Assembly (NCBI GenBank): GCA_026770705.1
Contig: JANJGN010000126.1
Span: 496,001 to 560,000, forward strand
Length of the DNA: 64,000 bases
Source: Isurus oxyrinchus
Lineage: Eukaryota
Direction of reading: 5' to 3'
This document shows, one piece after another, positions 20,748-62,609 of this stretch (the first letter of the stretch is position 1; each line of letters starts with the position of its first letter). The translations under genes were made by a program, and so were the position numbers. The notes under the pieces were generated by a model. It was not told the origin of the DNA. It saw nothing but the letters and a program-made list of their open reading frames with translations, and made no database searches.

Positions 20748-20756
20748 AGCTTAGAG

Positions 20757-20912
20757 CTAACTTTCTGACTACCGTGAAACGTTCCCGAAGAAGATGTGGT
20801 CTTTCTAAATACTCAGTGTCCATGGCGGTGATAGATCTCCTTGTTATTTTCATTACACTGGTATTGAGCTGGTTTACGGCTATTTATTTTACAGTCATTT
20901 TCTGAATCACTC
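20757..20912 (+). pseudogene. GPCR fragment F (truncated exon 2, TM1-ECL1)
   Basis: (CT)n..AG|CT AAC TTT CTG..SRRRCGLSK..SMAVIDLLVI..AIYF, then breaks at the duplication junction. Confidence 0.8.
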
Positions 20913-34875: not shown

Positions 34876-36791
34876 CTGTTACAGAAACATCACTTTACCC
34901 TTTGACTTTTTAACTGATATTGTGCCTAATTGTGATGAAGTATTGATATCCAACTCTAACATTGGCAGAGTAAATGATGCTTTGGTCAATTACGTTGAAT
35001 GACCACATGTGTTGGGCTCCATATCCTCTTGCAAGTAATTGGCCAATTCCCTTTTGAAGGATTTTCTGCGGTGTGCTCGCACAGATTGCCTGAATAAATA
35101 AACTTTCCTGATGGAAAGACACGAAGAGTTGGGCTTGTGATTCTTATACAGTTCTCGACATATGCAGTGTTTACTCGTGCAATTGAATTCATACCAAAGA
35201 GCCAAAAGTCGTTTTTTCTGATCAAGAGGGTTTTCATTACTCTGAATGGATGTGCACAGTGTAAGTCCATTTACTGTACCGTGAACTGAGGCTGTAACAG
35301 AAAAGGAGAAACGCTTTGCTACAGCTATACAAATCCCTGGTTGGATTACATGCTGGATTACTTGTAGTTCTGGGAATGGAACATTAGAAATGATAAACAT
35401 TGGTCTGGAAACAGGCCGGCACTGATCTACCACAATGCTTGGAAGGTTTTAATATTTAGACTCAGGCGCCATGCCAGTTATTACAGCAGGACAACTGTTG
35501 TTTTCTGCCTGGTGCCTCAGCTTGTAATGAATTTCAAGATGTTAGAATCTATGTCCAGCAAATATCCAAATGTATAATTACTTTTACTCAATCATTAGTA
35601 ATACCATGCAGATTCAAACAACTATACTCAGTATCTGTACCATGATTCAATGTTTAAAATCAAAGTTGTAATATTTGTATTCTCATTTTGAAATTAGGCA
35701 CTCTCCACATTGCAACACAAAATGAATTGTAAACCTGGCGGAGTTGCGCCATTTGTTGCAGCGAAGAAACAACTCCGGCCTGGAGTGCTCCTTTCAAAGG
35801 TCAGTTGTGATCAGTTGATCAGGAGTAATGTGTGTATCTGTGTAAACAGCAAGGAGAAATATCTGTCCCATTGCAACCCATATTCAGCCTTACACCACCA
35901 TCTTTAGTCAGTTAACTTTTTGTGCATTGCGCATTATCACAGCCCATCTCACCCCTTTCCTTCACTTCTAATCTCCGCCTCTATAGCTGTTCTCGACCAG
36001 TGGACACGTGAATTTTCCAAAACCTGATGCGAAATTTTAACTCTCAGCCCTCGTTTCATTCTTTCAATCAAGACGTAATTCATGCTAGTTTTGACAATTC
36101 GCATGAAATCAAGTGTTGTGACTAGCCAATCTGGTAACTCGTGTTTTCTTTTAGTTTTAGTAATAATAATTGATGTGGGGAAGCATGGATTTGTGTAGTG
36201 GGTAAACAATAATTACAATTCACTGGATAGTCCATGTCTGCATAAAGAGGCCAGATCTGCCAGTGTGAAATCCTTAAAGAATAGGCAGCTTTTCATGGTG
36301 TGGACGTACTATCTGCAGTTGTCTTCATAAGGGGTTTAAGTAGTCATGCAGCTCCCAGATCAAAGAAGCTACAAGTGCCAGAGAAGGCATTAGGGTTTGT
36401 GTATTAGACAGGCCCCGGTTTTTGCACCACATCACTTTGTTTAGGCTGATTTCCTTTTTGTGTCATCGAGGCCCCAATGTCCAACGGGTTCTGCTCCCTC
36501 TCAAGCCTGAGGGAATACAAATTCTAGCGAAAGCTTGTAGAATTTCTGTTCAACAGTATGTCTATATCAGATCTATATCAGATCTGCGTTGGTCCCAATC
36601 TCTCAGAATCGTTCTCATGTTTTTTGCCCAGTTCAGCATAAGAAGGCCGACAAGATTTTGTCTCGATGGTGTTTATGTGCCATATATTTCCCGGCCTCTA
36701 GGAATTAGCCTATGGTTGTGCCAACGGCAATATCAGTGTTATATATCGGCTCTACAACTGCTCTGCTTTGTAAGTGTTTAGCCGCACAGTG

Positions 36792-36792
<1 letters not shown>

Positions 36793-36823
<31 letters not shown>

Positions 36824-36866
36824 GAGGGGGGGGGGGGGGGGGCGGTGGTGGCGTGGGGGGGGGGGC
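36793..36866. repeat. Long poly-G tract
   Basis: Direct reading. Confidence 0.9.
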
Positions 36867-37745
36867 ACTTTACTCCGCGCCTAACCAGTGCTGTAGAGGC
36901 CTGGGAATATCTTATGTGATATGTAATGAACGTATTCTTCCTCAAACATTGTGCTGCATTAACCTCTGAGGAAGAGTGCCTTTATTATTTAGAACGACCC
37001 GACGCTGACTGTGACAGATCAGAGACGTCACTCAGTTGCTCTTCGCCATTCCATCATTCTGCTTCTGGTTTTTACCATAAAAGGGAAGGGGTAAACATTT
37101 CTTTACACGGGTGGGGCGTTGTGTGGTGAATCGCTCTTTGACTGAAGGGCCTCGAGTTCAAACACTTTGCAGACAGGAATCGTGATAAATACCAGTCGGG
37201 AAAGGAGGAAAACGTGAAATAGGGAGAATGCAGCCATGTCGATGAAGCGAGGAGAAATGAATTCAGCAAAGTCATACTTGGTGCAATTATCATTCAAGAT
37301 TTATTAACAATTTCAGAGCATGTTTTGTAGAAATGGTTCATTTAAAGGTCACAAAAGTGAATTTATCGTTTGAGCGTCACATTGAGACAACCCCATATAC
37401 TCTGAGCTGCCAACTGTAAGTAGAAGTGTATCATAGGCCAGAAAGAGAAAACAGAAATTTAGCATAAAGGGAAGGGGACAACATCGAAAGAAAGGACATA
37501 TTTACAAATGCAATTCAAGCTATAGTGAAATTATAAGCTACAGTTATTTTAAAATAATAATTATCTCGCGCATTTCAGACAGAAAGGCGGAAATACTGTC
37601 CACGAATGTCTCAATTACAGATTCCGAATCATAAAATGAAGACATTTCACTGTTAGCGTCACCAGGAGAACATATTTTAAAGTCATAATACAGAGATCTC
37701 AATAAACAACTGAGGAACAGCCAAGGAGGTCCGAAAATCAACCGA

Positions 37746-38022
37746 TCACTTAAACTGTAAAAGAGGGAGAAAATAATGCAGCAGATATTAATGACCTGGA
37801 ACATTTATGTTGGAGTTTTCAATCAGTGAAATATTTGGAGATTTTTCAAACCGCTCCTGTCATATTGATGTGTGAGTGGATTGAATCTTCTCACCATCAC
37901 CAGAGTGACGGCAGCGCCATAGAAAATGCTCAAGAAGAACAGGGCGATGAATGTGGAAGCAGTTGTCCAGATGTTCCCGTTATTGTCCTCAGAGTCTTTA
38001 ATCCAGATGCGGCCCGTGGAAT
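37746..38022 (-). pseudogene. Orphan immunoglobulin heavy-chain (IgM-type) transmembrane exons TM1 (38022-37895) and TM2 (37754-37746), copy 1
   Basis: cttctAG|AT, (D)STGRIWIKDSEDNNGNIWTTASTFIALFFLSIFYGAAVTLVM|GTGAGA; ttttacAG|TTT AAG TGA; CART-motif TM; AATAAA at 37305-37300; no CH exon seen upstream. Confidence 0.85.
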
Positions 38023-38569
38023 CTAGAAGGATGTATCGGAGGAAATGTTTTAATATGCATATTAATCCAGGACGCCCCATTATCTTTTGCACATATATTC
38101 TGTTGTATCTTCATCAAGCTTTTGGCTTACTTTCGAATTAGATTTTCATGCCTGCCTATTATTACATTAGTGGCTCTCAGTAATCTTTTCCTGTTACTAA
38201 CACCACAGCCGTTCTTGCTTTACATTCCACATGCTGTCCATATCAGTACATTGTATTTTTAAAGATTCAGTGCCAGTGTGTTTTGGATCAATTTCATATG
38301 ACCTATTACTGGATAACGCAGGAAAATTAGTAGTTCAAAACGGTTATTTTAACGACAGGTACTTATGGCTACTAATTGCAGGCTCTGGGTGTTATCACTT
38401 ATGTGATCAGTTGGGGAATCGCATCTTCTTTCATAATTTGTCATGGAAATGCTTGGAAAATCATTCACTTAACTCAGTTTCTAAGTGAGAGCGTTGTTTC
38501 AATGTATTTGCAGGGCGTACATGTTATTGGAAGTATTATTGGAGGATACAACTGTTAAGTACAAACAAA

Positions 38570-40650
38570 GGATTATAATCTCAGCCCAGAGAGAACAAAG
38601 TCCTGTTTTATTGAGCTGATCGGGATGAAGCTGGACCATCATTTTCCAGACCTTCTCCCAAAAGCACATTCCAGAAAGAGGTAGACAATGATTTCTCTGA
38701 TCGCACCTCTTTCAAGGACAGAATGGGTGCATGTTAGATTCTGGGCAGACAGGGTGGATCTGACAGGGGAATCCCGTCTCACCAAAAACTAATGATATTC
38801 ATGTTGATGGTTTGAAGATTTATAAAGGAAGCTTTCATCAGCTGCGGAATATGAAACACAATGGCCTGGAAGTGGTAATCAGCTTTGGATGGCCATTCCG
38901 CCATTTTCAACGTTCCCTGCCCCGCAGCTCCACATTTCTCACCTGCAGTTCAGAACAGGGTTTCAAGGGAACAGTGGGGTGTAAAGTCCTCCTTCCTCGT
39001 ACAGGAATGTCGGAGAAAGCTGAGCCAGAGCACTTCTGTGGCTCTAGCTACCGTTTACCAGTAGCTTTAATGATTCCAAAACCAGGTTGGCACAGCGCAG
39101 ACAGAAGGTCAGTGTGCAAGACAGCAGGGTCAGAGAGTCGGGTGGCAAGTAAAGGGGTGAGGGAATAGGGTAGTTCGAGGGATATCAGGGAGTTCGTGGT
39201 TGTCGACATTTAGTGGGGGAAGGGGGCTAGACAATTGGACGGGGGGGTGGTTAGCGGGTCGGTGTTCAGGTGCTGAGTAGGCAGCGAGGGGTGGGAGTGT
39301 GGGTAGCGTTTGGGTTATCTGGAGGGTTGTCTGGGGTAGGGGGAGATTCGGGTGTTCTGGAGGGTAGTCGGGGGTTGGGTGTAATGGGAATGTGGGGTAT
39401 TAGTTTGGGGATGGGAGTTGTACCCGTCATCTCGGCGGCAGTTGAAGTTTCAATGTATTAGTCAGGGTATGGGTAATTGGATTTTGGATGGTAGTCGGGG
39501 ACCTGGGGCACACTCGGGCTGTCTGGACAGTAATTGGGGTGTCCATTTCAGAGTTGGAGATCTGAATTCTGGTTCCCCAGGAGCTGGAACTGGTATTAAT
39601 CCTTCTCACGTTTCCTGGGTACCTATTCTGCTAAGTATGCCAGGAAAATCCAACTCCTCCAAATCTAACCCAGGGTTCTGGAATGTTCCAGATGCAGTAC
39701 TAATTGCCCAAAGGATGTGGAAAATCCCGGGGAAGTTGCCGGGCAGTCCTGAAGTGGGGACTTACAAGGGATCGAACACCACATCTCTCTGGTACCTCGG
39801 GGTCAGGTCATCCATTGGTCAGATCTGGGACATATTGAAAATACATTCTGATCTTCGTAGGGCCGCAGCCATGAGGCACCACAACGATGCTGTGGGAGAA
39901 GCACAACCTCCACCATCTGCCCCCGGTCCGCAAGCCCCCATATGAGGGCTGCATGGGTATTGACCGGAAAATTCAAACTTCTGAAGAACATCAGGAACCA
40001 TCCAAACCATCCGACACGTGGATTTAAATGGGAAACTTCAGTTCGTTATGCCTGTCCCGGAAGAATAGTTTCCCAGGAGGAGTGAGAAGAACGAAAATCG
40101 CTTCTAACTCCTGGGTCACTATGGAAATGAGAACCCCAACCCCCCACTGGAAACCTCAACTATATCTCCCACCTCCCCGACTGCCGAAGCTCCCCCGTCT
40201 ATCCTCTCAAACCGCACCTGACTACGCCCCATTTCCTTCCCCAACCCCTGACTACCCTCCCGCCCCCAGGCTGCCCTCCCAATAATTGATGATCCACAAG
40301 CACCCGACTGCACACTCACCCAGTTAGGACACAACCAACCATGCGAATATTCCTTATAACCAGCCAAACACCCTCCCAGCACATCGAGTACTCGCCAACC
40401 ATGACATTGACAATCTCCCCCGATTCCCCAAACACCCTGCAGACCCCTCATTACCCCATAAGCCTTCCAGCCCCCTGTACAGCCCAGGGTATCACTCTAA
40501 CACCTCGACAACCATCCCAACCACGCCGAATTCTCTCCTGGTATCCAAATGTAACAACACTGGACACACCTGATGATTCCAACACTGCCCCCCACCCTCT
40601 CCCCCAGCGGCCAATCACCTCCATCCCCAATCCTGGAAAATTGGATTCTG
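38570..40650. repeat. Composite non-autonomous element with a G-rich arm (39160-39460) and a C-rich arm (40130-40640)
   Basis: Mirror-image base composition and shared motif with 33090; ORFs here are low-complexity. Confidence 0.5.
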
Positions 40651-41260
40651 GATGTCTGATCTCTAATAGCAGTAGTTTTCCTTATCCATGTTTGATCTGA
40701 TGTTTTCTGATGTCATGAGACTTGATGGATTCCGCAGCAGATGTTGAGAACTCCCAAGGCCCTCCTTCCAGAATATACACCACTGTACTGGCATTACCGA
40801 AAGTTCTAGCCTGTTGGGTTATGTTGCTTCCCAACTCGATTTATTTCCAATTAAAGCATTCCAAATCATATTTTTTGCAGTAAATTCCATATCTCATGCG
40901 CCTGGCATTCCAGCTGTCTTTCCTGAATTATGTCAACTAGCCTGCACACAGTTTTCTCCATATCCATGTCTTGTGCTATCGGCAAAGTTTAAATTTTTAC
41001 CCTTTGCTCCCGTGTCCATATGACTAACAGATATCACAAATGACAATTGACACCGATACTTGTGGGACATTGTGTTAACTTGCTTCACGATGCAAAACCA
41101 TTGGGACCCACGAATACCATCCCGTCTATTACTTCAGAGAAAAGTTCGGTCAAGTTTGTCTATTTTGCCTTATTACAAATCCATGTTAGCTGTCGGTTAT
41201 TAACCGAAAATCTTCAAATTCACCATTAAAATTGCCCCGATTCTGTTCATTGGACGTTCA
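40650..41260 (-). mobile_element. CR1 RT fragment
   Basis: Minus-strand QHGF/SCL-like remnant ('aagttcggtcaagtttg..acaaatccatgttagctg'). Confidence 0.55.
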
Positions 41261-42614
41261 CCTGGCGGCAATGTTAGGCTGACTGATTGTAATGCAGCAA
41301 TGATTTTCACACAGGATAGGAAATGTCTCTGTGGTGAATTTGCTTGGGGGCTTCTACATTGTCATGTGACATTCAATGTCAACATGCTTCATTAACATTC
41401 AACATCATAACGTGAGAAAAGTGCAACTTTTAAAGATATTGTAAGATATCATGAGGGTAATGTTTCCTGTTGAATAAGTTTTAAAAAAATCTAGTTTGTA
41501 AAGGAGAACATGAAAAAAATAACGACTGATCTTATTGGGAATTACAATGGATTAATTGATGCAACGGAAATAACGAGACAACCCGACTAATAAATTCGTC
41601 AAATTCTTTCTGTACCTGCCTTTCGAAAGACGAATGTGCTCCTGAGCAGTGTCAGTGTCATCCAGCATCCGCCCAAAATGAAAACGAATGGAACGTCTCG
41701 CCAATCAGCCCAAATTGCCGAGTTGTAGGCCCCTACTGCATTACAAAGCAACACTGCAGCACCAACATCCTGTTATTCTCTGGAATCCATTAAGTGTCAA
41801 CTAAACTCGCTTGCATTTCACGCTATGCACACCCCAAAATCCTGCCCACCAGATCATTGATAAATGGTTCTATTGAGTATTGTCAGAAGATAGAGTGAGA
41901 TTGTTAATATTGGTTCATACAATGCAATGGCAACTCCTGCCTCTGTCAAGGAGCATTAAAGAGTCTGGCTCCAATTCAACAGATTGCATTTGCCAGAGCT
42001 TCGTCTCTTCATAGCCGACACTGCATTTCAGCTGTAACGTCGCTGGTCCAGAGGCATCGCTGGCCCCGTGGACACATCATCAGATCTGCTGCCTCTCCTT
42101 ACAGGCTGCAGAACAGTCATCTGGGAAATCCAGAAACCAACCACCAGGCCTCCAAAAACAATCCTTAATAACACCAAATAGTTTGTGACAGGAGAACTCC
42201 TCCAAATTAAATTTCATGATATTAAGGTACCAAGCCCATTGTGAAACACTGGTGGAGTGTCAGTTTTGCAGAACTGGAGCTTCTGTTTGCCGAATGATGT
42301 ATTAATGCGTTTTCTAGTCCACATTCGGTATACTGCCATCACTTCAGTCGTCAGGATGTGTGAATTCAGTGTAACATCGATTCACCTCTTTCAGGCAAAT
42401 ACAGGGCATACTCCCACAAGCCTCTTTCACAAATGGAATTCTGGGTCACGGTAGAGGGTGCCTCAGCAAACCACAGCTAAACATCAGTACCACTGCTACA
42501 ACTAATTTCGCGCCCCGAATATTGAAGCTATCCACTGACATTATAGTTGATCAGGTCTGGGCCTGTTGTCGAATAACTGTTAAAGATAAATTGGTAGGAC
42601 CGGTTAACTTCTGA

Positions 42615-42905
42615 TGGGAGGTGGTGATGTAGCAGCATTATGAGCAGGTTAACATTGCATAAGGCCCAACCTAATTCTCTGGGGACCTAAGTTCACATCC
42701 CACCGTGGAAGGTTGGGCAATTTGAATTCAATAAAAAATCTTTAATTAAGCGTCTGATGATTATCATGAAACCATTGCTAATTGCTGTAAAAGCCCATTT
42801 GGTTTAATTATTTCCTGCAGGAAAGAGCATCTGCTGTCTGGCCTCTACGTGACTCTTAAATGCTCTCTGAACAAGAGCATTTAGCGATTGAATGAATAAA
42901 AAAAT
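42615..42905 (+). mobile_element. tRNA-derived SINE (same family as 2293)
   Basis: 'gggaggtggtgatgtagc..ctggggacctaagttcacatcccacc..tttgaattcaataaaaaatc..catgaaaccattg..gaatgaataaaaaa'. Confidence 0.75.
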
Positions 42906-45719
42906 CCCTTCTACCTTTATCAACGTGGCTAACAGGACAGCAGGAAATGAAATCGGCTGAAGATTTATAAATGATAAATGAAGATAATGTCCTTATGCAG
43001 TTTTATAACTTTTTAAAAAATGATTTTGTTGGTCATTTTTGGGGCCCCTTTAGAGATGGGACTCTTCCCAATTGGCCAACGGAAAGTGCAGAAGATGAAT
43101 TGATGGTCTTTTGCCATCGCAATCCCACAGTCCGCTGTTTATATATTTAGGGGCTCAGGTGTTTGCTGTAAAGCGGTGCTTAGTCAGTGGAGAACAATTC
43201 CTGAGGAAAGTATGTGCATCCATTTCGAAGCGTATCCAACCATCAAGATCAGAATCATTACTGGGGCGGGACGCGGGGAGATTGTAGTGCTTTATCCACA
43301 TTTCATGTTGGAATGTGTAAGAAATCAGAGATACGACACTTAGCCGTCCACATGAACGTAGAGCTACTACGAGGACTACAAGGACCCTGGATTCTGATGG
43401 GAATAAGACAGACCACAGAAAATATGGGGAAGAGAACATTTAACTACCAGAGAACAGATACTGACACTTAATTGTGCTCGGATGTATTGCGCCTTTAACA
43501 GTCTTATTTTCAAACTGAGTGACTGTTAACTAGAATGGAAAACAATGCGTGGCATCGACAAGAAGGGGAAAGGATGGAATCTTGTGTACAGTTGAAGTTG
43601 GATTCTGCTGTCCTTATCGTCCAAATAATTTAACAATTTCAAGTAGTGGATATTTCACCCCATTCTTTAACACCTCTCTGAATTTACTCTGGTCCCTGCG
43701 TAAATAAACAGGTTTGCGCAGGAACTCAAAAACTGAAGCATGTATGCTTTTTCCTCAAGAATGAATGTTGAAAGATTGATTTCAGAGCTTGATAAGTATT
43801 TAACATTTCCAATTTGCACATAGAGGAAAGTTATAAAAAGTAACAAATATAAGAGGATGAAACTTCCCGATACACAGAAGAGTAAAATGATGGACATTGT
43901 CCGCTTCTCCATCTCAGGGTCACGCTGATTGTCTCCATTTCTCCGGGTCTGGAGTCTCCTGCGAGCTCTACTGGCTGCGAGAATGTGTCTGACTGTCAGG
44001 ACATTGAGCAGTAAAATCAGAATGAATGGGAGACAAGGGGTTAAAATGTGATGAATACAGTCATAGGCGATCCATGCAAGTGAGGTATAAAATATCACTT
44101 TTACATCGCAGAACCAGGGCACATTGTCAATTATGTACAAAGATTCGTATATAAAATACTGGAAGGTGTTTTTGACACAGCTGATTGCGCAGATTGTCCC
44201 TATAACCCGTGCCGCCGTTTTTTTGGAACAACATTTTACTTTCAGCTTCTGGTAACAAATGGCCACAAATCGATCAAAGGTGAAAGCTGTCGTTAACCAG
44301 GCAGAGCTGTCTATGGCTGTATATATTAGGGCTTCACGGAGACTGCATACTGGTGTGATTGACAGGAAACTGAGTGGGAAATAAATACCAGCAGTCCGGT
44401 TCAATATCACAGTGGTTATAATGAGCGGGAGATCTCACACCGCCAGGGATTGTAAATAATAGGTTATACAGGTGGAGATACCGCATTTCACTCGAGAAAG
44501 GATCACAATCACCGCCAGGTTAGCTGCAATAAAGAGAGAGAGAGAAAGAGAGAAGTTGGAAAGAGACTGAGTTTGTGTGTGTGTGAGTTTGGGAGAGAAC
44601 GAATACAGGAAGGTTACTGCTCAAACTATAAACAAATCAACAGTTGTATAGGATTCTGCATGAATTTGTATATTTCAGATGTGTTCCCCAGTTGCGAAAT
44701 TGTAATGGGCAAGTGATTCAGCTTTGTAAATTGAAATCTTAATTCAATATAGGTCAGGTCAAAGTTATATGAATGTCAAATATTTTAATAAAAACTAATG
44801 GAGAACAAAAGACATCGTTAACACTGAGAAACCAACCTAGAATTTCTGTATAAGCAAGAAGAAAGTGTACGCATCTGCAAGGCATTGCAGGAAATAATGA
44901 CGAAGGTAAGTAACAAAACAAGCAACAAGAAGTGTGGAAACTAACAAGGGCGCAGATTATATCTCACGGAAGATCAATATAGTTCCTTTCCTATACAATA
45001 ATTGGCAATAATTATTGAAAATTATTCGTTGTTGTGAACTTTGGGAATTAAACCTGCTCAAAAATATCGACATACAGCGAGAAGTAAAGGGGCAATGAAT
45101 GATTTCTGATCTTCCAGACAGGGCGTTTGCCTGCATGTGAAGATACATCCTAGCTCCTCACATATAGTCAACTGGAAGATCGGTGTCGATCTGAACCTTT
45201 GGAAAAGTCTCCTTCCAAGTGAGGTCCCTCTTGCAATGCAGCACTGACTCCGTACTGCATTGCACTTTCCGGGATCAACTATCAACGTTGTCCTGTAATG
45301 GATATTTCAAATCAAAGCATTGCGCCTGAGATGTGAAAGATGCAGCCAAGTAGGGAGCCTCATTCAATATGAACAAACAGCAGAGACGGGAAAATGTGGG
45401 ACATTTCCCGGTGATATCAGCAGAAGGAAATTCCGGCGTCAACAGTGGTCAAGTCGAAGCGTCAGCAGCAGTTCAAGAACCAATTAGTGTTGGAGACTGA
45501 GAGCAGAAACACACCTCTGTGATCGTGGTGCTAATATAGAATATTCATCAAAAGTCTATTATTACATTGTTCATACATCTGTCAAAAACTGGGTGCTCAT
45601 GATGTCCTTCCAACAAATTCATTGGGGGAATATTGAATGTTACATTGCTCTCTATCAATGAAACATTCGTGGGAATTGTTCGATCATTGTCAATGTGATC
45701 AACACAACAGATTTACATT

Positions 45720-46140
45720 TGCACCGTGAAAACAGTGTGATAGCTCATCCACAGTTCGACTGTCAGTAACAGAAGATGATCCATTTCACAGTGTGTTTAA
45801 AATGTGATAACCTAACCACAGTTCGACTGTCAGTAACAGAACACGAACATATTCATACTGTGATTAAAGTGTGATCACTCAACCACAGTTAGACTGTCAG
45901 TAACACAAGGTGATCACATTCACACCGTGATTACAATGTGATAATTCACCTTCAGTAACGATACCGGAAGCACAATGGAAAAACATTTAGACTGTAATGT
46001 CATTGTTAAAATACACCAGCAGTAACAGAAGACAAATACATTTGCACCGTGATTACAATGTGATAATTCTCCTTCAGCAACAATGCCAGTAACAGAATGG
46101 AAAGGCAATTGCACTGTGATAACAGTGTGAAAATACACCA
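45720..46140. repeat. 67-bp minisatellite in the gene C intron
   Basis: ccacagtt(c/a)gactgtcagtaaca at 45749, 45816 and 45883. Confidence 0.85.
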
Positions 46141-46169
46141 GTACTAAATGGTGCAAAACACCGTTGAAG

Positions 46170-46570
46170 ACGGTAATATAATACCACTTACAACGAAAAA
46201 TTACACCCTTATAAGGGGGATATTATACCGCTAACAACGAGAAATTTCACCCTGAACAGGGTAATATTTTACCATTAACAGCGAGAAATTGCACACTTTG
46301 CAGAGTATGATAGCACTTAAATTGTGAAATTTTGTTTTTAACAAGGTTATATTATGCCACTAACAGCGAAGAATTGCACCTTTAATAGCATATTATTAAG
46401 CCATTAGCGGCGAGAATTTTAGGCAAAGGGAACAAATTATATTGTCAAAATTGAGACATTATACCTATAAAGTGGGGAAAATGTTCTTTTAGAGGGGTAA
46501 AATATACTTGTTAAAAGAGGGAAATTGCTCCATTAATGGGGAGAATTGTACAGATAAAGGGCGGAATGGG
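46170..46570. repeat. 44-bp (2x22) minisatellite near the gene C splice donor
   Basis: tacc..taaca.cga anchors at 46182, 46226 and 46270. Confidence 0.75.
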
Positions 46571-46789
46571 AGAATGGTTATAACGTTATGGATATACAAT
46601 GCTTTTAAAAGGTAGAATTCCTGCAGGTAACCGATTTCCGTATCAAAATACTAATTACAATACTTTACCTGGAACCCCGAGAGCTGCAAGGACTGGATAA
46701 TAAATGGCAGACAGAAGGTCTTTTGGTGATCCGTGCATTTTCAACAAATGTTCTGAAAGCCTTCTGCACATCACTGAAAGATTGTCACA

Positions 46790-46824
46790 TTTATAACTGA
46801 TGTGAAGCGCCAGGGAGTTAATTA
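46790..46824 (-). promoter_or_regulatory. Gene C core promoter: homeodomain site, O/E-like site, TATA
   Basis: Minus strand TAATTA-ac-TCCCTGGCGC-11 nt-TATAAA. Confidence 0.6.
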
Positions 46825-47619
46825 GGTGGTTTGATCTCTTGCATTAAATACATTAATTTTCAATAATAACAGTTCAGCCCAGCTGCTTCAGGACTGACGG
46901 TTATGTTTTGGGAGAATAAAAGGTTTTTTTTTTCAATGGAGTTGACACCCAGAGATTGCAGCATGATCACAATTTCTTTTCTCAGAAAAAGATACCGACC
47001 TGGATTTTGTGGTCAGGGGTGAATGAGAGGCCTTTGGCCCTGATTGCTCTGGAGAATCCCAATTTGACTGGTTCACTGGCTGCCGCCAGAATTTAAGCCT
47101 TTGGCTGATGCATGGTCCATGGACAAAATGATCTGTGAAATGTAGCATCGGGGTGACTTCTGACGACGGCCGCCCCTGCTGACGTCACGAGCCTGATACA
47201 AGTTCCCTGCGGTCCCTTTTCAGGCCAAAGGCAGATGGGTGTTTTGTTATGATTTAAAACACTTCTACGGACTTTAAAAATTTTCAAATTTTTCTAACAC
47301 TTTCATATACTTGAAAAGCCTTTTAAGCACTAAGTGAGTGCTGCACAAGTGAATGCACGCTGTGGTAGAAAATGCCCCGATGCAAGAATTTTCAAACAGG
47401 ACAGGAAATGTGACACAGGCTGCAGGATTGTCATGTGATATTCGATGTTCACATGCTTGTCTAATGTTATAAGTTGCAACGCGAGATTTTAAAGCAGCCT
47501 CAAGATAATTGTACACTTACTGCTTTGGAAATTATGCACTGCATCACCTTACTGCAATTCTCTCATGAATTCGGCCACGCTGCCTCTGGCTTTTCGTTTC
47601 ATAGACTTCTGTTTTCAAC

Positions 47620-48230
47620 AGGATCAAGGAAGTGCAGGACTGGATGCTAAATATTTCTCTGTACAAGGTATGCAGTAAAGATTGTGCAGGAAGAAAAGGA
47701 CGGGGGTTACGGTATTGTTTAAGGAGAGCATTGCAGTGCTGCAGAAAGAGGATGTCCCAGAAGGTTGAAGGACAGAATCAATTTGGCGAGAGCTAAGGGG
47801 GAAAAAATGTGCCATTAAGTGCGAGGTGTTGTCTGCTGTCCACTTGCCAGTAGGAAGGATGTAATGGAACAACTCTGCAGGGTAAACACAGAGGTGCAAT
47901 CATGAAAGAAAAGTAATAATGGGGCACTTTAATTACCGGAATATAGACTGGGATACTCGCAGTGTAAAGGACAGAGAAGGGCAAGAGCTCCTCGATTGTG
48001 TTCAGGGGAATGTTGTACAGCAGTATGTGTCCGGTACAACAAGAAAGGAGGCACTGCTAGACGTGGCTCTTGCAAATGAGGTTAGACAGATAGATCAAGT
48101 GTCAGCGGGGAACATCAAGGAGAAAGCGATCATTGTCTCATAAGGTGTAGGGTGACGGTCAAAAAAGCATCTTGGAATATCCAGAGTAAGAATAATGAAT
48201 TCTGCACAGCTGACTTTAATGGAACAAGAA
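47620..48230 (+). mobile_element. CR1 APE-endonuclease fragment
   Basis: MGHFNYRNIDW..LDCVQ..QQYV..TRKEALLDV matches the GDFN..IDW..LDLV endonuclease motifs. Confidence 0.85.
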
Positions 48231-48652
48231 CCAATCACGGTGCAGTGACGTGTTGTAAAAATTGTGACATCATTCGCTGCAGGACCAATCGACGAAGGCC
48301 AAATTATTGTGAAGTCATACCCTACTCATGCCTGCTGTTTATTAAAAAGAGCGTTTCAATTGAATGAAAAGATGACTTCCGTCCTCATTAAAATAGCCAC
48401 TCAATTTCAACACTCATTGAACCGTAACATATATCGACCGTAATTGATAATTTCCCGCACTGATTCGCTCAGCGGGGAAGTCTGTTCCGCCTGTGACCCC
48501 TGACTGAGGACTGTGGGCCCGCGGGAGTGAGTTCTTGGCATCTTATTGGGGCCAAGCGTCCATTGAGTCTTTCCGAGCCTGGGAAAGGACAGAGAAACAC
48601 AGGAGCACAACGGTGGTGGCTAACGATAAATGCAGCTAACAGTGGAGTGATA

Positions 48653-48928
48653 TCCTGAACGGTAAAAGCAAAATACTGCGGATGCTGGAAATCTGGAACA
48701 CAGACAGAAAATGCTGGAAAAACGCAGCACGTCTAACAGCATCTGTGGACAGAAAGGCAGAATTAAAGTTTCAAATCTGTATGACTTTTCTTCAGAGAAG
48801 AAAATGACTCTGAAGAAGAGTCATACGGAATCGAAACATTAACTCTGTCTTTTCCTTCGCAGATGCTGTCAGACCTGCTGAGCTTTTATAGCATTTTCTG
48901 TTGTTTGTTTCAAATGTCCTGAACGGTA
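48653..48928. mobile_element. Penelope-type inverted terminal-repeat insertion with 12-bp target-site duplication
   Basis: TCCTGAACGGTA at 48653-48664 and 48917-48928; interior is an imperfect palindrome. Confidence 0.8.
48806..48845 (+). ncRNA. Minimal hammerhead ribozyme-like motif (Penelope-associated)
   Basis: CTGAAGA-a-GAGTC-atacg-GAATC-GAAA-c. Confidence 0.55.
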
Positions 48929-49244
48929 GTGTGGAAAAGGATGGGAGTCAGATTGGGAGAGATAAAGGGTTTAAACATTAACTTCACCGATTAACAAACA
49001 GCATTCCGAGTCTTTAAGATGCGTCGGTAATTTTTCCCTGCCTCACTCTTCCTACATTCAACAACAAGGAACCTCGCCCGTGAACTCTGGGTTTTTAGAG
49101 AAAATGTTGGAAGATATTAGGTCGTGGAGAGAACTTCTCCTGATATTCCCATGATTGGGAGGCGCTGAAGGAACCACTGAAAAAACAATGAAGCAGATGG
49201 AACAAAACCCCGAGGGTGATAAAAGAATAAAACTGCAGAATAAA

Positions 49245-49410
49245 ACTGGAAATCTGAAAGAAACACAGAAAGCTCTGCAGGTCTGACAGCATCTGTGGAG
49301 ACAGAAACAAAGTTATAAAATTTCATCAGACGGACTCGAAACGTCAACTCTATTCCTTCTTCCACAGGTGCTGTCCGCCTGCTGAGTTTTTGCAGCATTT
49401 TCTGTGTTTA
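49245..49410. mobile_element. Short Penelope-type inverted-repeat remnant
   Basis: gcaggtctgacagcatctgtgga ... tccacaggtgctgtccgcctgc. Confidence 0.7.
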
Positions 49411-50870
49411 TGTAACCGTGGGGTGATGTTCATTTAGTTCAGGGAGATTGTATCAGAAGGAATGGAACAGGGAGGGAGGATCCCTGGGGTTATGCTCAGT
49501 GAGAACAGGGAGATGGTATCAGGGGGAATGAGCTGATCAGGAAACAGTTCACAATCGAAGGAAAAGGGAGAATGACAGGGCTAATGGATTTAAAAGAAAA
49601 GTTGGAAGTGGACAGTCAGTGTGTATTTACCAGAATGTGGACCGTATATATTCTTAACAGAAAGGCATTGGTTTGGTGGGGTGCGAGTAATGCCTGTTTG
49701 TGTATTTAAGAAATACTTCGAAGCCAGTGTCTCAGTATTCAATAGGCCCCAGGATCAAGGAACAAGCCCCATGTTTATGTTTACTTGCTGCATCACGTGG
49801 AACCCCGTCTTTGGACATTTTCGCGGTTTTGTCCCCCAGGTATGTGCAATAGACCTAAAGATCTGTAATAATTTACAGGATTTTCACTCGATCATATATC
49901 AGTGCCAGACACGTTCGAGTCTCTGGAATCGCCCCTTGGTTAATGCTCCCAATTATGCCTGTGTTATATATCTAGCCAGTGGCACCCCTGCCTTCAAAGT
50001 GTTTAATTGGACAATGCAGAGGGATCTTAACCCTGTTATGACCCTGGCTGTACCAACCGTGGGAGTGTTGGCTAGGGCAGTGTAAAGGAAGTTTTCTGAT
50101 CCAACATCCTGTAATGCGTCAGCCTCTGATGAAGCCGAACGCTACTGTATAAAATAACCTGACATGTGAATGTGACCGCCCAGAGTATGAGTCAAATCAC
50201 CGAGGTGGCCGTCCCTGTTCAATCATTCCGCCTCAGGCAATTGCCAGAAACAGGCAGAGGCAAAGGTCCCTTTGCACGGAAGGGGCGATGGGTGGCCCAT
50301 TGGGGCCTTCTGGGCAAATAGATCCCAGACAGGACTGGTGAAATAGGGAGAAATGTGTAATAGGGAAAATGGAGCAGTGTCGATGGACCGCAGAAAAAGG
50401 AATTCAGCAAAGCCATAGTTAGATCACTTTTTATTCCACATTCATTAGCAATTTCAGAGAATATTTTACATGAAAGTTTATTTTATGGTTAACAGACGTG
50501 AATATAATGGCTGAGCGTCACATTGGGAGCATGCACTCTGAGTTGGTAAACCGTATGTACCACGGAAACATAGATCAGAAAGAGAAAACAGCGGCTCAAC
50601 GGAAAGGGAAGGGAACAATAGTGAAAATGGAACGAGAAAAGTTAATTAACGACAAATGGCATTCTAAGTCCATGGAAATTAGATGCTCCAATTTCATTAC
50701 GACCATTAACACCTCGCACATTTCAAACAGAAAAACGGAAATTCTGTGGCAGGTTCGGTTACAGATCGGGAATTACAAAGTGAGAACATTTCACTTTTAC
50801 AGTGACCAAGAGAACATATTTTAAATTGTAATTAAAGGAGTCCGAAGTTCGGGGTCCGAAATTCAACCGA

Positions 50871-51147
50871 TCACTTGATCTGTAAAAGAGGCAGAATATA
50901 ATGAAGCAGATGTTTATGATCTGGTGCATTTATGTTATAGATCTTAATCGTTGAAACATTAAGAAAGTTTTCAAACCGCTTCTGTCAGATTGTCGTGTTA
51001 GTAAATGCAATTTTCTCACATTCACCAGAGTGATGGCAGTTCTGTAGAAAATGCTCAGGACGAACAGGGCAATGGTTGTGGAAGCTGTTGTGCAGACGTT
51101 CCCGTTATCGTCCTCATTGTCTTCAATCCACATGCGTTCTGTGGAAT
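50871..51147 (-). pseudogene. Orphan IgH (IgM-type) TM1 (51147-51020) and TM2 (50879-50871), copy 2
   Basis: cctgtAG|AT, (D)STERMWIEDNEDDNGNVCTTASTTIALFVLSIFYRTAITLVN|GTGAGA; ttttacAG|ATC AAG TGA; flanks ~49650-51680 align with ~36300-38560. Confidence 0.85.
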
Positions 51148-51979
51148 CTACAGGAATATAACCAAGGAAATTTAATTAAATTGTTAGAATCCGAGGGCAT
51201 CTTACTTTTTAAAATATATATTAAATCTATTGTATTTCCCTCAAACTATTGATTTGTCTTCTCATTAAATTTTCAGTGCATATCTGGTAATAAATTGGCG
51301 ACTCTCAGCAATCTCTGCCTGTCACTAACCCCACAGCTGTTCTCACTTTACTCATCCTGCCCGTTTTGGAAAAAAAACTGTCTTTTCCCCCTTCGGTACC
51401 AGTTCATTTTGGATCAATTTCGTGCAGCCTATCATTGGATTATATTATGCAGTAAATTGCAGGACGTTTAATTATTGATAACAATTATTTTAATGGTAGG
51501 TACTGATCGCTATTAATTCTGAGATTCTTAACTCAGTAAATTTTCAACTTGTTTATTTATTTGTGGTAGTAATGTTTGGCACATAGTTAACTTAAATCAG
51601 TTTATAATTCAGAACATTGCTTCAGTGTGTTTCCTGGGTCTTTATGTGCTCCCAGAAATTTTTGGAAGATGTGCCCGCTAAAAAAGGACTCTTGAAATAG
51701 ACTTCTGTCCGGCATTTGTTTTTTTTTTAAATATATATTTGCGTATAGCGTGCAGGGGTGTCTCGTTCTCTGCGTTTAACTGTGTTTGTGTGCCATGTTG
51801 TATGAATGCTGATGTGTATGTTGATGTGGAATCAATGTTGATATGCTTATTTATGTGTGGCGCACCTGTGTATGTTTGTTTGTTCGTTTGTAAATGTTTG
51901 TGTATCAGTGTGCCTGTTTATGCGTTGATGTTTATGTTCACTTATTAATGCCTGTGTCAAAAAGTTTGTTTACGTCCAT

Positions 51980-53150
51980 AAAAGCAAAATACTGTGGATG
52001 CTGCAAATCTGAAACAAAAACAAGAATAGCTGCAAAAACTCAGCAGGTCTGACATCATCTGTGGAGGGGAATAGAGTTAATGTTACGAGTCCGGATGACT
52101 CTTCATCAGAACTGAGGAAAAATAGAAATGAGGTGAAATATAAGCTGGTTGAGGGGGGTGGGATAGGTAGAGCTGGATAGCAGGCCCATGATAGGTGGCG
52201 GCAAAGAAGAGGTTTTCAATGATGTCAACGAGTAAAGGATAAAAGGGTGTTGATGGTGGTAATGTGATGGGGTTGCAGTGGGGGGAATAGAGCGAAATAG
52301 GCTAAAAGGTGAAGAAAAAATGAATGGAAATAAATTTAAAAATAATTGAAATAGGTGGGAAAAGGAAAATATATTTAAAAAATCATATTTTAAAATTATA
52401 ATTTTTTGGAAATAGGGGATCGGAAAGGGGGTGGGGATGGAGGAGAAAATTGATGATCTGAAGTTGTTGAAATCAATGTTAAGTCTGGAAGTCGGTAAAG
52501 TGCCTAATCAGAAGATGAGGTGCTGTTCCTTCAGTTTGCGTTGACCTCCCCAGAGCATTGCAGCAGGCCAAGGACGGACATGTGGGCATGAAAGCAGGGT
52601 GGTGTGTTGAAATGGCAAGTGACCAGGAGGTCTGAGTCATGCTTGGGGACAGACCGGTGTCTGCGCACAGTCTAATATTTGCAATACTTTATAATTTAAA
52701 AAAATATTTTTTAATATGTTTTTCTTTTTCCATCTATTTCTAATATTTTTAATTTAATTTCCACTCATTGTTTTACCTCCACCTTTTAGCCTATTTCGAT
52801 CCCTTTCCCCCACCACAGTCCCACGGAGGCTATCTGTCATTTGCTCGTCCTGCTTTCTACCCTTAATGTCACCATTAGCATGTTCCTTTGCTAACATCAC
52901 CACCGTTAACATTCATTTGTCCTTTTGCCTATGACATCTTTGGCAATCTCTTCTTTGCCTCCACCTATCACTGGCGCTCTATCCAGCTCTACCTGTCCCA
53001 ACCCCTTCAACCAGTTTATATTTCACCTCATTTCTATTTTTCCTTAATTCTGATGAAGATTCATGTGGACTCGAAACGTTAACTGTGATCCTCTCTGCAG
53101 ATGCTGTCAGACCTGTGGAGTTTTCCAGCTATTTTTGCGTTTGTTTCCGT
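51980..53150. mobile_element. Penelope-like element with inverted ends and a GIY-YIG C-terminal remnant
   Basis: 52020-52400 is reverse-complementary to 52690-53145; minus strand 52450-52610 encodes HMSVLGLLQCSGE..EQHLIF*LGTL..LNIDFNNFR; splits a TG-rich tract. Confidence 0.8.
53046..53085 (+). ncRNA. Minimal hammerhead ribozyme-like motif
   Basis: CTGATGA-a-GATTC-atgtg-GACTC-GAAA-CGTTAAC; mirror copy on the minus strand near 52075-52112 has GAAA changed to GTAA. Confidence 0.55.
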
Positions 53151-53159
53151 CCTTGCTTG

Positions 53160-53700
53160 TTAATGTATCTGTTATTATGACTTTTTAGGTTCTCTGTTTG
53201 CTATGTTAATAATTTTGCCTGCATGAGCGTGTGAATATGTTACGGCGTGCCTTTATGTGTTGATGGATGTTTATAACTATGTGTTTATGCCTGTTTAGTT
53301 GTCCATGTGTACTAAAATGTGTGTTTCTATGTGTTTGTGTTATTGTGGGTGTGTGAATATATTCATCTTCGTTTCTTGTTCGTGTTTGTGAAAATGCTAT
53401 TGCCTGTTCATCTAAGTGCCCGTGTGTCAATTTGTTAATGTGTGTATGGAAATGCCTATGTATTTGCATTACTGTGCATGATAGTGTGTCTTTAGATCTA
53501 TATTTTTTGTTCGTTGAAGCATAGTAATGAACATATTCATGTACATGTTTACTTGTCCTGCATGAGTCTGCTTGTGGGGTTGTGTATATCTGCATTTGTA
53601 TCTGTTGTGTATATGTGTGTGTGTGTGTGTGTATGTGTGTGTGCACACACACATTTGCATTTGTGTGACTGTGAGGCCATGTGTTTGAGAGAGTATGAAA
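53160..53700. repeat. TG-rich low-complexity tract with (GT)n; continuation of 51730-51960
   Basis: Direct reading. Confidence 0.8.
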
Positions 53701-54199
53701 TCTCTACAGCTGACAAAAGTTTTAATTCTTGAAGCAAACACCGCGAACTTGAACCAAATTTTGATCACAAATATATTTTTGCACTCCATCTTTTTCTAAA
53801 CTCTCAACTGAGCTCTAGATATCTTCACATAAACATGACACACATGGTCTGTTACCGTGTAGAATGGCAAAATAATTATCCGTTAATTCCAAAACTTTCC
53901 TTAATTCTGGTAAACCACGTAAATAGCTTTTAATTCATTGGAATAACTACAGACGTCCTGTTCCTGTTCCGTAGCTTATTAAGACCACCTGCAGTATGAA
54001 GGCCTTAACTTCCGGACTGTTAAATCTTAAGTCAACATGGCTCCAGCCTTCTAAGAATAATAAACTCCAAGGCTGTTTGCATTGCATTAAATTTAGGGCT
54101 GCATTTGCCAGTTTCGTCACCAGATGTACCCACTGCCATCAGTTAATTTCCAAAACTAAAGATTACATTGAAAAAAACACATCTGAACAATGACACTAA

Positions 54200-54890
54200 C
54201 GTAACAAAAGGTCAATTTCAGGCCGTAGGATCGGGTAAAAAGTCACTATTAAACTGGGATATCAGTCACAAGGTCATTGTCAGCCAGAGCCTCAAATAAG
54301 TGATCAAGGTTAAATTGGGACATCCGGTACAAAGTCACTGTTAGATTCAATTATCAGTTAAAATGTCACTGCTGGACTGGACTATCAAGTACATGGCCAA
54401 TGTTAGATCGTGATATCAGTTACAAGGCCACTATTAGGCTGGATTATCAGTTACAGGGTGGCGATTAGAACAGACTGCTGGTACAAGGTAAATTGTGGAT
54501 CGGGACATTGATTACAAGGTCACTGTTAGATCGGAGTGTCGGATACAAGGCCAGCAGAACATCAGGTTTCAATCCCATGGTAACCGTTTGATGACAGTAT
54601 CTGTAAAACACCCACTGCTGGATTTCGGTAACATTTAAACGAGCACTGTGCGACTAGGTATCAGTTACGTGATCACTGTAAGTCTGTGGTGTCAGGCACA
54701 AGGTCATTTTAGATTGTCCGTTTTCTACATGGGCACTAATATTCCATGCATTTCAATTACATGGTTTTTGTTACACCGGGGTATCATTTGCAAGGCCAGT
54801 TTTCAAGTTAAACTGTTTTATCATTTCCATAATAAGTGTCACTCGGAGGTATCACTTATACATTTAGTGTTAGACCAGACATAAGTTTCA
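54200..54890. repeat. 31-bp minisatellite, about 20 degenerate units
   Basis: tatc anchors at 54352, 54383, 54414 and 54445; consensus approximately tatcagttacaaggtcactgttagatcggga. Confidence 0.85.
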
Positions 54891-60075: not shown

Positions 60076-62609
60076 TGTAACAACCACAAATCCCAACCAC
60101 TGGCCCATTTAGTTCCTGGTCCAAAACACGCACATCCGATCCATTGGTAAAATCTGTCCTGCTTACCAACCTGAATTTGGGATGCTGTCACTCTCTGCTG
60201 CTCCTTTCTGTTGGCCAGTATCCAGTTCTGATTCAATCTCTAATTTATTTTCTTCACTTTAGCGATCCATTTACCTAACCTGTTCGTTTGTTCTTTTCGA
60301 GAGTGTGTGTGTTACTGGGATACAGTCTCAGGGTTCATTGTGGCTTTTGGGAGAGCAATAATTATCAGGAAGACACATTCGGATATCCTGATTTGAAAGA
60401 CAATTTATGAATGAATTCAAATCTGTATTTACTTCTTTACACAGCCTTATTATTCCACTCAGCTGTCTTGTCAAATAAAAAATGAACCATTTTCCTTCAG
60501 TACAAATCATAGCCCATCCTATAAATGATTTTCCAATGTTCGTGCGTGCAGTTTGGAGCATGTTCATGGGATATTGAGCAGGACTAGTAATGGGGTGAGT
60601 GATTTTCACTCCGAACCCCATGAGTAAGGTCAGGAAATGATGCTGGGACCTGCTGCTGCATTTGGTTTCCTGTTACAACAGGATGGTGTTTAACTTGAAA
60701 CCCGCCCTCCAGCGGAAAGTTCAAACACTGGTATAGCAATTAGATTCTGACCTTGGATAACTCTTCAAATTTCAGTCTGCAAAAGTTGCTCTAAGTTAAT
60801 CAATAAATTTCCTGTCTTTCTCTTCCTTACAGTGAACTTACTGACTATTGTGACCCGGTCTCGGGGAAGGTGCGGTCTGTCAAAAAGTGTTTCCCGTTAC
60901 CTGGTGTCCATGGCAACTGCGGATCTACTCGTCGTTATCCTTGATCTCATATTCAGGCAAATTGCTATTCGTTACTGGGCTCAGTTTCAGTTCATATGGA
61001 GGATTACAGTGTGTAATATCCATGCAGTCCTGCTTTATGCAGCCACAGATTGTTCTGTCTGGTTCACAGATTCTTTCCCCTTGGATAGATTTCTGGATAA
61101 TTATTCCCACAAGTTGAAAACAAATTATTGCACCGAGCATACGGCGGCTGTGGTTCTCAGAACAGTCAGTCTGCTGTTCTGTGTGGAAAGCACTTGCTGG
61201 TACTTTATGTATGAAGGTCAGTATGCAATTTCCAACGCTCCTTGGTTTTGCACATTAGTGACTGGTGCTGATCTTTCGTCAATGTGGGCAGCAATCGAAT
61301 TTTTTCATTATATTTTAACTCTATTTGCACCATTTGTTTTTATTTTGGTGTTGAATGCTTTAACTGTCAGATATATTTTAGTGTCGAGCAGAGGCCGCAG
61401 GAGACTCTGGGTTCACTGCAGTGGGGAGAATGCCAGTGACCCAGAGATGGAGAAACGCAGGAAATCCATCATTTTACTGTTTCCTAGATCGGGGAATTTT
61501 ATCCTGTTGTGGGCAATCTTTATGATCTATTCTGCTTGTAATAGGCTATATTAGTTAGATGCTATTCCTGAAAATCTTCCTAAATTTGTGCACGAACTGG
61601 GGTTTATGTTTCAGCTCCTGAGTTGTTGCACCAACACGGCTATTTATGCAGTGACCTAGACTCAATTCAGAAAGGAGCTGAAGAATGTCGTGAAATATCC
61701 CTTTTCTGTAATTGTTAAATTTATTAAACAGTGAGAAGAATTTCCATTTTCAATATGAGTTTAACCTGTTTGTTTCCCAATCTCTTCATCTCGGTGATGA
61801 GCACAGGGTGAGGCTGGTTTCCATCTTTCACCGCCAGGATTCAGTGACTAACAGAAACGCTGCATTTGGGAAGTAATTTACCTCAGTCCTGTTTGTCCTG
61901 CTGGTTTTCCGTCTGTTGCAACTGTCCGGTTCGCCTTGGGACTGGTTTGTGAAATTCCCACCCACCAGGCTCGAGTTTCATGTCATTGCACAAAGGGGGC
62001 TTTGAGGACAAGGTCAATCGGGCAGGTTACAGTCCAGGGGCGGACATGCAGCATTGTCTCCACTATCCCAGGGAAACCTTGTTCAAAACATTTCGGACTA
62101 ACCTGCAGATGGCAGGGTGGTTTTCAGAGGTTCAAAGGTCAGTGATTTCAGCTTTTCAAAATCTTTCTGTGATTTTATTCCAGTATTTATTCCAGTCCCA
62201 GAACCTCAGAGTGGGGAGTCTCCTCGTTTCAAGTAAAGGTTTATTTCCACTGCACAAGTTATGTCTCAGTGAAATTCGTCAATTTAAATGTCCCCCTGAA
62301 CACATCCGGAAAAAGTATGTTCAGGAGAGGAGAGTTAGGGGGGGGGGGGGGGGGGGTGGAATGTGCTCAGAACTGAAATAAAAAAGTGAAATGTGGGAAT
62401 AATCAGCAGCCCTCGCTACCTTTGTGTAGAGAGAAACAGACTAAAGCTTTAAGGGCTTCCATCAGTGTTGTGACACCCTTAGGTGATGCAAAGGCTTCCT
62501 CCTTCTGCAGCAGTAACTGAAGCATGTCATTTCAAAGTGTGGGGTGTGGGGTGAGGGGGGCTGGCGGGCTAAGTGGGAGTTTATTTTGGTGGGGGTGGCG
62601 GTGGCGGGG

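Follow-up and report, generated by a model that had tools for sequence, protein, structure and literature searches.

The window, a stretch of 64,000 nt on contig C126 of the Isurus oxyrinchus assembly, carries two relic 3' ends of immunoglobulin (Ig) M heavy-chain clusters, lying among GPR139-like GPCR genes. The features are as follows:

36869..38579, minus strand: cassette A (copy 1), an IgM 3'-end relic with the end of the CH4-TM intron, TM1, TM2 and the 3' UTR
37895..38022, minus strand: TM1 exon A, 128 nt, AG/GT intact, frame open
37746..37754, minus strand: coding part of TM2 exon A (F-K-stop), after a 140-nt intron
49366..53696, minus strand: cassette B (copy 2), IgM cluster 3' end, starting within the CH4-TM intron and reaching past the 3' UTR
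51020..51147, minus strand: TM1 exon B, 128 nt, AG/GT intact, frame open
50871..50879, minus strand: coding part of TM2 exon B (I-K-stop), after a 140-nt intron
50477..50482, minus strand: AATAAA of cassette B, at the site common to CH4-linked IgM 3' UTRs
53690..53705, no strand: breakpoint where the cut IgM cluster is joined to the gene-D segment, placed by a one-sided match to the parent at C20:77100766
43612..46738, minus strand: GPCR gene C, GPR139-like, exons 46738-46669 and 44523-~43612, broken
60835..61730, plus strand: main exon of GPCR gene D, GPR139-like, part of the amplified block, with two in-frame stops

Both cassettes described in an earlier note on this DNA are real: each consists, on the minus strand, of a 128-nt TM1, a 140-nt intron and a TM2, with open frames and intact GT/AG sites as that note had stated. 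When block bounds are set by comparison with CH4-linked clusters, its size of about 2 kb suits cassette A (36869-38579), whereas cassette B (49366-53696) extends over about 4.3 kb. Similarly, its poly(A) signal per cassette holds for B, which keeps AATAAA at the usual site; in copy 1, the hexamer at that site is mutated and AATAAA is left at 37300 and 36981. The K-V-K tail that it took as reference gives way to K-I-K, the usual tail in the I. oxyrinchus genome. The two blocks align with each other (36922-38547 vs. 50081-51670; 66–79% per 200-nt bin) with a score of 1081, while none of 20 shuffles scored above 46. In TM1 exon B, the membrane helix carries the substitutions W>C, F>T and S>R, the last also seen in one CH4-linked exon (L160), and Pfam returned no family for either TM1 peptide.

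Judged by homology of exon and flanks, both cassettes are derived from IgM, which upholds their description as orphan IgH 3' ends. Cassette A is about 70% identical to CH4-linked IgM clusters over 1.6–1.7 kb, a tree rooted at its midpoint groups its copies as the sister clade of C26-type IgM, and the best protein relatives of its TM1 are elasmobranch Ig heavy chains (76–78%). Cassette B is 79% identical to a CH4-linked cluster over 2.7 kb and 85% identical to a parent locus on C20. The comparison of 3' ends covered IgM clusters, with this 70–79% DNA identity to their flanks, and two IgNAR stretches, which gave no TM match. In exon size, phase, intron length (138–141 nt), TM2 (xK-stop) and 3' UTR, the cassettes match the elasmobranch IgM minilocus (VH-D1-D2-JH-Cmu) and have the 128-nt TM1 and short TM2 of its Cmu membrane exons, while the shark and skate heavy chains among their database relatives end in the same helix. 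They differ from it in lacking upstream V, D, J, CH and secretory exons, in their relaxed selection and in encoding no receptor on their own.

The absence of V, J and CH exons was confirmed over the surrounding 264 kb (C126:436001-700000, i.e., the window with flanks of 60 kb and 140 kb). Over this region, no exon was found with an Ig C1-set profile, the check proposed by the earlier note, which recovered 18/18 CH exons in four control stretches (two IgM, two IgNAR), nor by tblastn with IgM V and CH1-4 and IgNAR C1-5, nor by blastn with V, D-J and CH1-4 DNA. Hence, the V, D, J, CH1-4 and secretory exons that a functional IgM minilocus should have within about 20 kb upstream are missing, and the nearest upstream CH4 is 611 kb away. 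Genome-wide, cassette A has 22 copies and cassette B 31, none of which (0/22 and 0/31) has a same-strand CH4 within 160 kb upstream; for all 53, an upstream CH4 is either absent or no closer than 163 kb, whereas 107 of the 116 other TM1 matches have a CH4 within 7 kb.

Two loci retain the arrangement from which these orphans can be traced. C20:77.09-77.15 Mb keeps the order V-(D)-J-CH1-4-sec, TM(B), GPCR C, TM(A) and more GPCRs, and C26:5.91-5.95 Mb keeps CH1-4, TM(B), GPCR C, TM(A). Neither parent is intact: in the first, TM1 contains a stop and the secretory tail is shifted, and the second has stops, a CH4 frameshift and a lost TM1 acceptor. Collinearity of the window with the C20 locus extends from 53697 to 3079 (85–91%), and the breakpoint at about 53697 falls in the CH4-TM intron, at a point that in the parent lies about 1.8 kb beyond CH4. 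This one breakpoint is common to all 31 B copies, the junction is spanned at 91–100% by 34 of the 40 scored loci, and 30 B copies form a single clade adjoining both parents (100/100). Moreover, gene C is found 6.6–9.6 kb downstream of 29/31 type-B copies. Because the parental order is kept at C20 and C26 and the junction is common to 34 loci, the tail and the neighbouring GPCR genes were amplified as one block, as the earlier note had supposed for cassettes and receptors. Long collinear copies of high identity, a shared breakpoint and an identified parent locus characterize this block as a segmental duplication. Some near-identical copies could be haplotype duplicates of the assembly; the mean pairwise flank distance between copies (2.6–3.8%) and the many copies on a single contig argue, at the sequence level, for real genomic duplicates. 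Among 15 duplicated units, the distances of B, C and A correlate weakly (r from -0.04 to 0.23; in a trimmed alignment r 0.21–0.28, p 0.08–0.12).

A simple local origin, by which a TM+GPCR pair would have been doubled in tandem inside the window, was rejected: the spacers are homologous solely in repeats and in the GPCR first-exon region. Nor did the cassettes arise as tandem copies together with genes C and D, since they differ by 29% and the units by 3–5%.

Neither gene C nor gene D is intact in the window, gene C being interrupted by a stop (44435-44437) and shifting frame near 43690; across its copies gene C is mostly decayed, with 4/24 reaching 320–326 aa. These genes and their neighbours match 7tm_1; for the window gene at 7530-8450, the best 120 of 2143 database relatives are all from sharks and rays. 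In this they resemble an elasmobranch expansion of “probable G-protein coupled receptor 139” genes, which the cited sections of PMC6504862 relate to GPR139, GPR142 and GPR210. That name is an automatic annotation, and genes C and D are called GPR139-like here by sequence likeness.

The orphan membrane exons show little of the constraint seen in CH4-linked exons. B has a pN/flank ratio of 0.93 and A one of 0.76, where CH4-linked exons have 0.25 and 0.30. Alleles that alter an amino acid number 19 in B for 18.4 expected (p = 0.61) and 14 in A for 21.4 expected, a mild deficit (p = 0.07), compared to 9 for 39.9 (p = 1e-8) and 8 for 17.2 (p = 0.015) in the CH4-linked controls. On these pairwise and allele counts, a 126-nt test of limited power, exon B is neutral, exon A borderline and the controls constrained, so that the purifying selection of a functional minilocus is not seen in the orphans. 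Between type A and CH4-linked exons, pN/flank is 0.37–0.41, below the ~0.6 expected if neutral since the split, and type A was therefore constrained for part of its history. The earlier note regarded the retained splice sites as remarkable, yet intact copies (18/21 A and 26/30 B) are about as frequent as expected under neutral substitution alone (84% and 89%), the remaining 3/21 and 4/30 carrying stops, a 1-nt insertion or splice changes; 2/25 control CH4-linked exons bear lesions too. With copies 2.6–3.8% apart and evolving nearly neutrally, intact splice sites are thus unremarkable: the youth of the copies and the small size of the target explain why frames and sites are still there. The poly(A) hexamer is unchanged in 13/30 B copies and mutated in the others. 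According to the cited sections of PMC9860311, bulky residues at the helix serine position impair receptor assembly in mouse IgM, and mouse IgE carries glycine at the Y-G helix motif position. If this transfers from mouse to shark, the serine-to-arginine change of B would impair assembly; the Y-G glycine of type A, shared with two database relatives, is not a clear lesion.

At face value, exons that keep frame and splice sites in most copies might serve as working anchors, onto which an IgM cluster or some other gene would be spliced in trans or over a long range, or which would be fused to the GPCR; in the C20 parent, moreover, TM1 is stopped and an open type-A TM1 stands 13 kb further on. 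We consider this very improbable, given the remoteness of any upstream CH4 for all 53 copies and the near-neutral evolution; furthermore, the A copy of the C20 parent has no normal TM2 acceptor, gene C is broken in the window, and none of 192 GPCR homologues (0/192) has a genuine Ig membrane motif, the sole match being a chance one inside the receptor, for which reason a GPCR-TM fusion was rejected. A more modest role, in which all copies would be dead except one or a few that supply a non-coding or read-through transcript with its last exon and poly(A) site, is unlikely too, though it can point to contigs from sequencing runs guessed to be RNA. Contigs of X10 (study P5) and X6-X8 (study P3, one sample) cover the equivalent of window positions 50465-51127 at about 97%, pass the TM1-TM2 intron unspliced and end 12–35 nt past AATAAA or just short of it, at 50465 (X10) and 50493-50500 (X8, X6). 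Their alleles best fit the B copy C20:77593012 (15/17, 99.2%; at most 11 for the other B copies compared), whose unit also carries a full-length gene C, and this single copy may be transcribed. Over the upstream intron, the contigs show alleles of CH4-linked clusters rather than B. However, the contigs reveal neither strand nor start nor level, and DNA or pre-mRNA could yield the same picture; no joint into a B-type TM1 occurs among the matches listed; the hexamer is unchanged in just 13 B copies; and transcription would not demonstrate function. Gene-C first-exon contigs (depth 4–8, 5–10 differences) could be assigned to no one copy. Across 36300-52000, repeats swamped the contigs of four runs. 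For 36900-45500, no RNA run was listed with a match, a result that bears neither way on expression.

The remaining alternative concerns the receptors: the GPR139-like family would be Ig-linked, having expanded because IgH clusters did, with a putative joint role in lymphocytes. In its favour, contigs with IgM matches carry 147 of the 150 best gene-C relatives and all but one of the 61 closest gene-D relatives, GPCR matches recur at similar distances from IgNAR and C26-type IgM clusters, and a light-chain array had none over 100 kb. Yet a local gene is expected to have its closest relatives nearby anyway, and 90 of the 150 best gene-D relatives lie on contigs without an IgM TM1 or CH4 match, the 89 beyond the closest 61 being spread over 31 such contigs. 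One of these contigs, C70, has six GPCR genes in a 100-kb stretch that lacks any Ig exon, a density of 6 per 100 kb against 1 per 200 kb between two IgM clusters of C26, and no GPCR occurs in the 50–70 kb stretches around one IgM cluster of C38 and two IgNAR clusters. On these lists of the best 150 out of 6442 and 7013 candidates, most members of the family do not sit beside IgH clusters; its linkage to Ig as a whole, suggested earlier, is improbable, and a sub-branch alone of the elasmobranch expansion lies among them. A bolder version, likewise improbable, would have this sub-branch copied with IgM and IgNAR clusters inside the IgH region, the captured tail at the likely source unit (C20:77.59 Mb) acting as the putative terminal exon of a B-cell transcript beside an intact receptor gene, and the orphan receptors placed under Ig-locus control.

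We regard the cassettes, with good confidence, as IgM membrane-exon relics, likely non-functional passengers of a GPR139-like block segmentally duplicated about 30 times. In the order of events that we infer, an older IgM cluster would have lost all except its 3' end (A) inside a GPCR array, with a second IgM cluster standing 13 kb upstream of A; a rearrangement would then have deleted V to CH4 of this second cluster and fused its tail (B) to the gene-D segment, after which the fused block would have spread through the IgH region, its copies drifting at close to the neutral rate. Like the three IgM pseudogenes of the nurse shark (PMC5192425, PMC2435157) and the three incomplete IgNAR clusters out of seven of the bamboo shark (PMC8692893), the cassettes are products of cluster duplication and decay; unlike those pseudogenes as described in the sections cited, they are tail-only, and one of the truncated tails, together with GPCR genes unrelated to it, underwent a further amplification of about 30-fold, a unit for which the literature searched offered no description. 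As in the antigen receptor complex of PMC12227049, where the sections cited place IgM, IgW and IgNAR near TCR alpha/delta, IgM and IgNAR clusters share contigs in I. oxyrinchus, and extra V segments occur between IgM clusters on C26. In contrast to the same source, which reports isotypes as not intermingling, C38, C42 and C126 mix IgM and IgNAR clusters. Its main text has no match to “GPR” or “G protein”, and no IgH-GPCR link was found in the literature searched (including PMC8692893, PMC8455134 and PMC11979771), a search mostly outside subscription papers on shark IgH.

Thus, the cassettes are probably ordinary genomic debris and not a new part of the immune system. With parent loci in hand, they document a route by which shark IgH clusters die and spread, through a single cut in the CH4-TM intron and some 30 rounds of duplication of the block. 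As orphan types A and B make up 53 of the roughly 170 TM1 matches tabulated, counts of membrane exons would overstate IgM genes by about a third here. GPR139-like genes between IgH clusters had no earlier description in the literature searched, and this neighbourhood would carry more weight if those receptors were expressed in lymphocytes.

Both orphan transmembrane (TM) cassettes described in the earlier note exist in the window, C126:496001-560000 of a 4.98-Gb genome:

38022-37895, minus strand: TM1 exon of type A (copy 1), 128 nt, AG/GT sites
From 37754, minus strand: TM2 exon of type A, after a 140-nt intron
51147-51020, minus strand: TM1 exon of type B (copy 2), 128 nt, AG/GT sites
From 50879, minus strand: TM2 exon of type B, after a 140-nt intron

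The two blocks can be aligned along ~1.6 kb (66–79% pairwise identity), the flanks of both resemble IgM clusters of the same genome at the DNA level, and a database search with the TM1 peptide brings up elasmobranch heavy chains as its relatives (6 of 26 candidates). Tail drift is indeed present in both cassettes, but not from KVK, as had been proposed: the usual tail in this genome being KIK, B shows K>N and A shows KI>MF. The reported lack of neighbouring CH, J and V exons was borne out, since a C1-set profile search, which recovered 18/18 CH exons in four control stretches, gave no match to an Ig constant exon across 264 kb around the window, in agreement with protein and DNA searches that returned no V, D-J or CH exon there. 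Among the tabulated best matches, a same-strand CH4 lies within 7 kb upstream of 107 of 116 other TM1 hits, while the 53 A and B copies all lack one within 160 kb.

Protein searches (best 150 of 216 and best 150 of 217 candidates) yielded 22 type A and 31 type B TM1 exons, and DNA searches (40 loci scored each) recovered identical sets plus two parental copies per type. Linkage was tabulated from 138 rows of the first TM1 protein search (12 further B-type rows, listed in the second as well, being left out), 32 rows of the second, 116 CH4 hits at at least 75% identity and the 32 closest hits of gene C, a broken GPR139-like GPCR gene. The suggestion that tails and neighbouring GPCR genes were amplified together holds: gene C follows 27/31 B copies within 10 kb (two further copies by direct sequence inspection), an A copy follows 17/31 at 10.6–13.2 kb, and the junction at ~53697 is spanned in 34/40 scored loci, including all 31 B copies, with the parent matching one side only. 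Orphan TM exons of a third, long-branched type (L167, C38:12281748; L168, C38:4219505; L169, C20:77223284) sit 36–42 kb downstream of type A copies; none was found in 264 kb around the window.

The parental order is kept on two other contigs, C20:77.086-77.116 Mb (V, J, CH1-4, TM(B), gene C, TM(A)) and C26:5.907-5.936 Mb (CH1-4, TM(B), gene C, TM(A)), in IgM clusters that are both broken. The window is collinear with the C20 parent from 53697 to 3079 (85–91% identity), and this homology ends ~1.8 kb past CH4. In the C20 cluster (77085724-77103446, L144-L146), V and CH1-4 are open, the secretory tail is frameshifted, TM1 holds a stop, and the single heptamer match between V and J is located at J. 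In the cassette tree (n = 84), 30 B copies form one clade adjoining the two parents, while the A copies form a separate clade, sister to C26-type IgM; the tree being midpoint-rooted, the order of events is inferred. As A and B differ by 29% and units by only 3–5%, A appears to be the older relic, which would already have adjoined gene C when the IgM cluster of B was cut. Altogether, the cassettes are probably orphan IgM tail relics, carried as passengers of a segmental duplication from an identifiable parent. Shark IgH comprises 15–200 miniloci with pseudogenes and incomplete clusters, as established in the portions available of PMC2435157, PMC5192425 and PMC8692893. Both parent loci share with the window a ~1.9-kb tandem duplication (19027-22824, 78%) that includes the 3' end of a broken GPCR gene, and degenerate tandem repeats lie at 45694-46147 (~67 nt, gene C intron) and 54230-54550 (~31 nt, just past the breakpoint).

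The retained splice sites had been deemed notable, but intact copies (A 18/21, B 26/30) are as frequent as substitutions alone would predict (84% and 89%). Over the copies included (21/22 A, 30/31 B), B is near neutral (nonsynonymous/flank 0.93; 19 alleles vs 18.4 expected), A less so (0.76; 14 vs 21.4, p = 0.07), and CH4-linked control exons reach 0.25 and 0.30. Bulky residues at the helix site after the tyrosine impair assembly, according to the part of PMC9860311 available, which bears on the arginine of B. Against reading the cassettes as pure debris, however, A was constrained during part of its history (pN/flank 0.37–0.41 to controls), 2/25 controls also carry lesions, and glycine at that site is tolerated in mouse IgE (same part of PMC9860311).

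The GPCR genes of the window match 7tm_1, and their relatives in sharks and rays carry the annotation “probable G-protein coupled receptor 139”. Gene C has one stop and one frameshift, gene D, its GPR139-like neighbour, two stops. Among 24 gene C copies, four reach 320–326 aa and seven more stop at 308 aa, right after the last helix; pN/pS is 0.55 among 22 duplicates. Distances for B, C and A correlate when parents are included (r 0.51–0.66), but the 15 duplicates on their own show little or no correlation, as expected from fast radiation or exchange between units.

Transcript data are contigs assembled from putative RNA runs, which carry no information on strand, promoter or function. Some have the spliced ends usual for ordinary IgM; others, in two studies, are unspliced B-type contigs over the equivalent of 50465-51127, whose variants fit the C20:77593012 copy (15/17), not the window copy. 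The match weakly suggests that transcription of one B copy may run as far as its poly(A) site. That copy (L107, L181) is the earliest-branching B copy and lies beside a full-length gene C (C20:77599572-77600480, 326 aa); its unit is a possible source of the expansion. In run X10, a loose end at 51149 suggests an IgM transcript in which TM1 is joined to a splice site within CH4, a junction that would not keep the frame.

The GPCR family is far larger than the amplified block, and 6442 and 7013 first-look candidates suggest that it is very large. The proposal that it is Ig-linked as a whole is not supported: 90 of the best 150 gene D hits lie on contigs without an IgM hit, and C70 carries six GPCRs with no Ig exon in 100 kb, so that a sub-branch, rather than the family, is IgH-resident. 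Dense, mostly open-frame GPR139-like arrays occur off IgH on C34, C46, C51, C70, C72, C85, C93, C182 and others. The 200 kb between two C26 IgM clusters hold a single GPCR. Also present there are four V-like segments, together with another decayed orphan TM (C26:35368129-35416901, L240-L245); the segments, divergent (26–34% to IgM V), could represent V genes of TCR or another kind. IgNAR and IgM clusters are intermixed on C38, C42, C100 and C126 (e.g., IgNAR at C126:848029-855455 and C38:2908883-2917242), and GPCR hits recur ~75–130 kb downstream of several IgNAR clusters; linkage of three IgH classes is reported in the available part of PMC12227049. On C88, five loci with clustered C1-set exons (43–44% identity to IgM CH4) are possibly IgW. 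Rinne et al. (PMC6504862, in the part available) describe GPR139/142-related GPR210 subtypes in bony fish and coelacanth, and a literature search, thin on subscription journals, gave no publication that places GPR139-like genes among IgH clusters. Two leads stand out: the GPCR branch that resides among IgH clusters and the C20 copy that may be transcribed.
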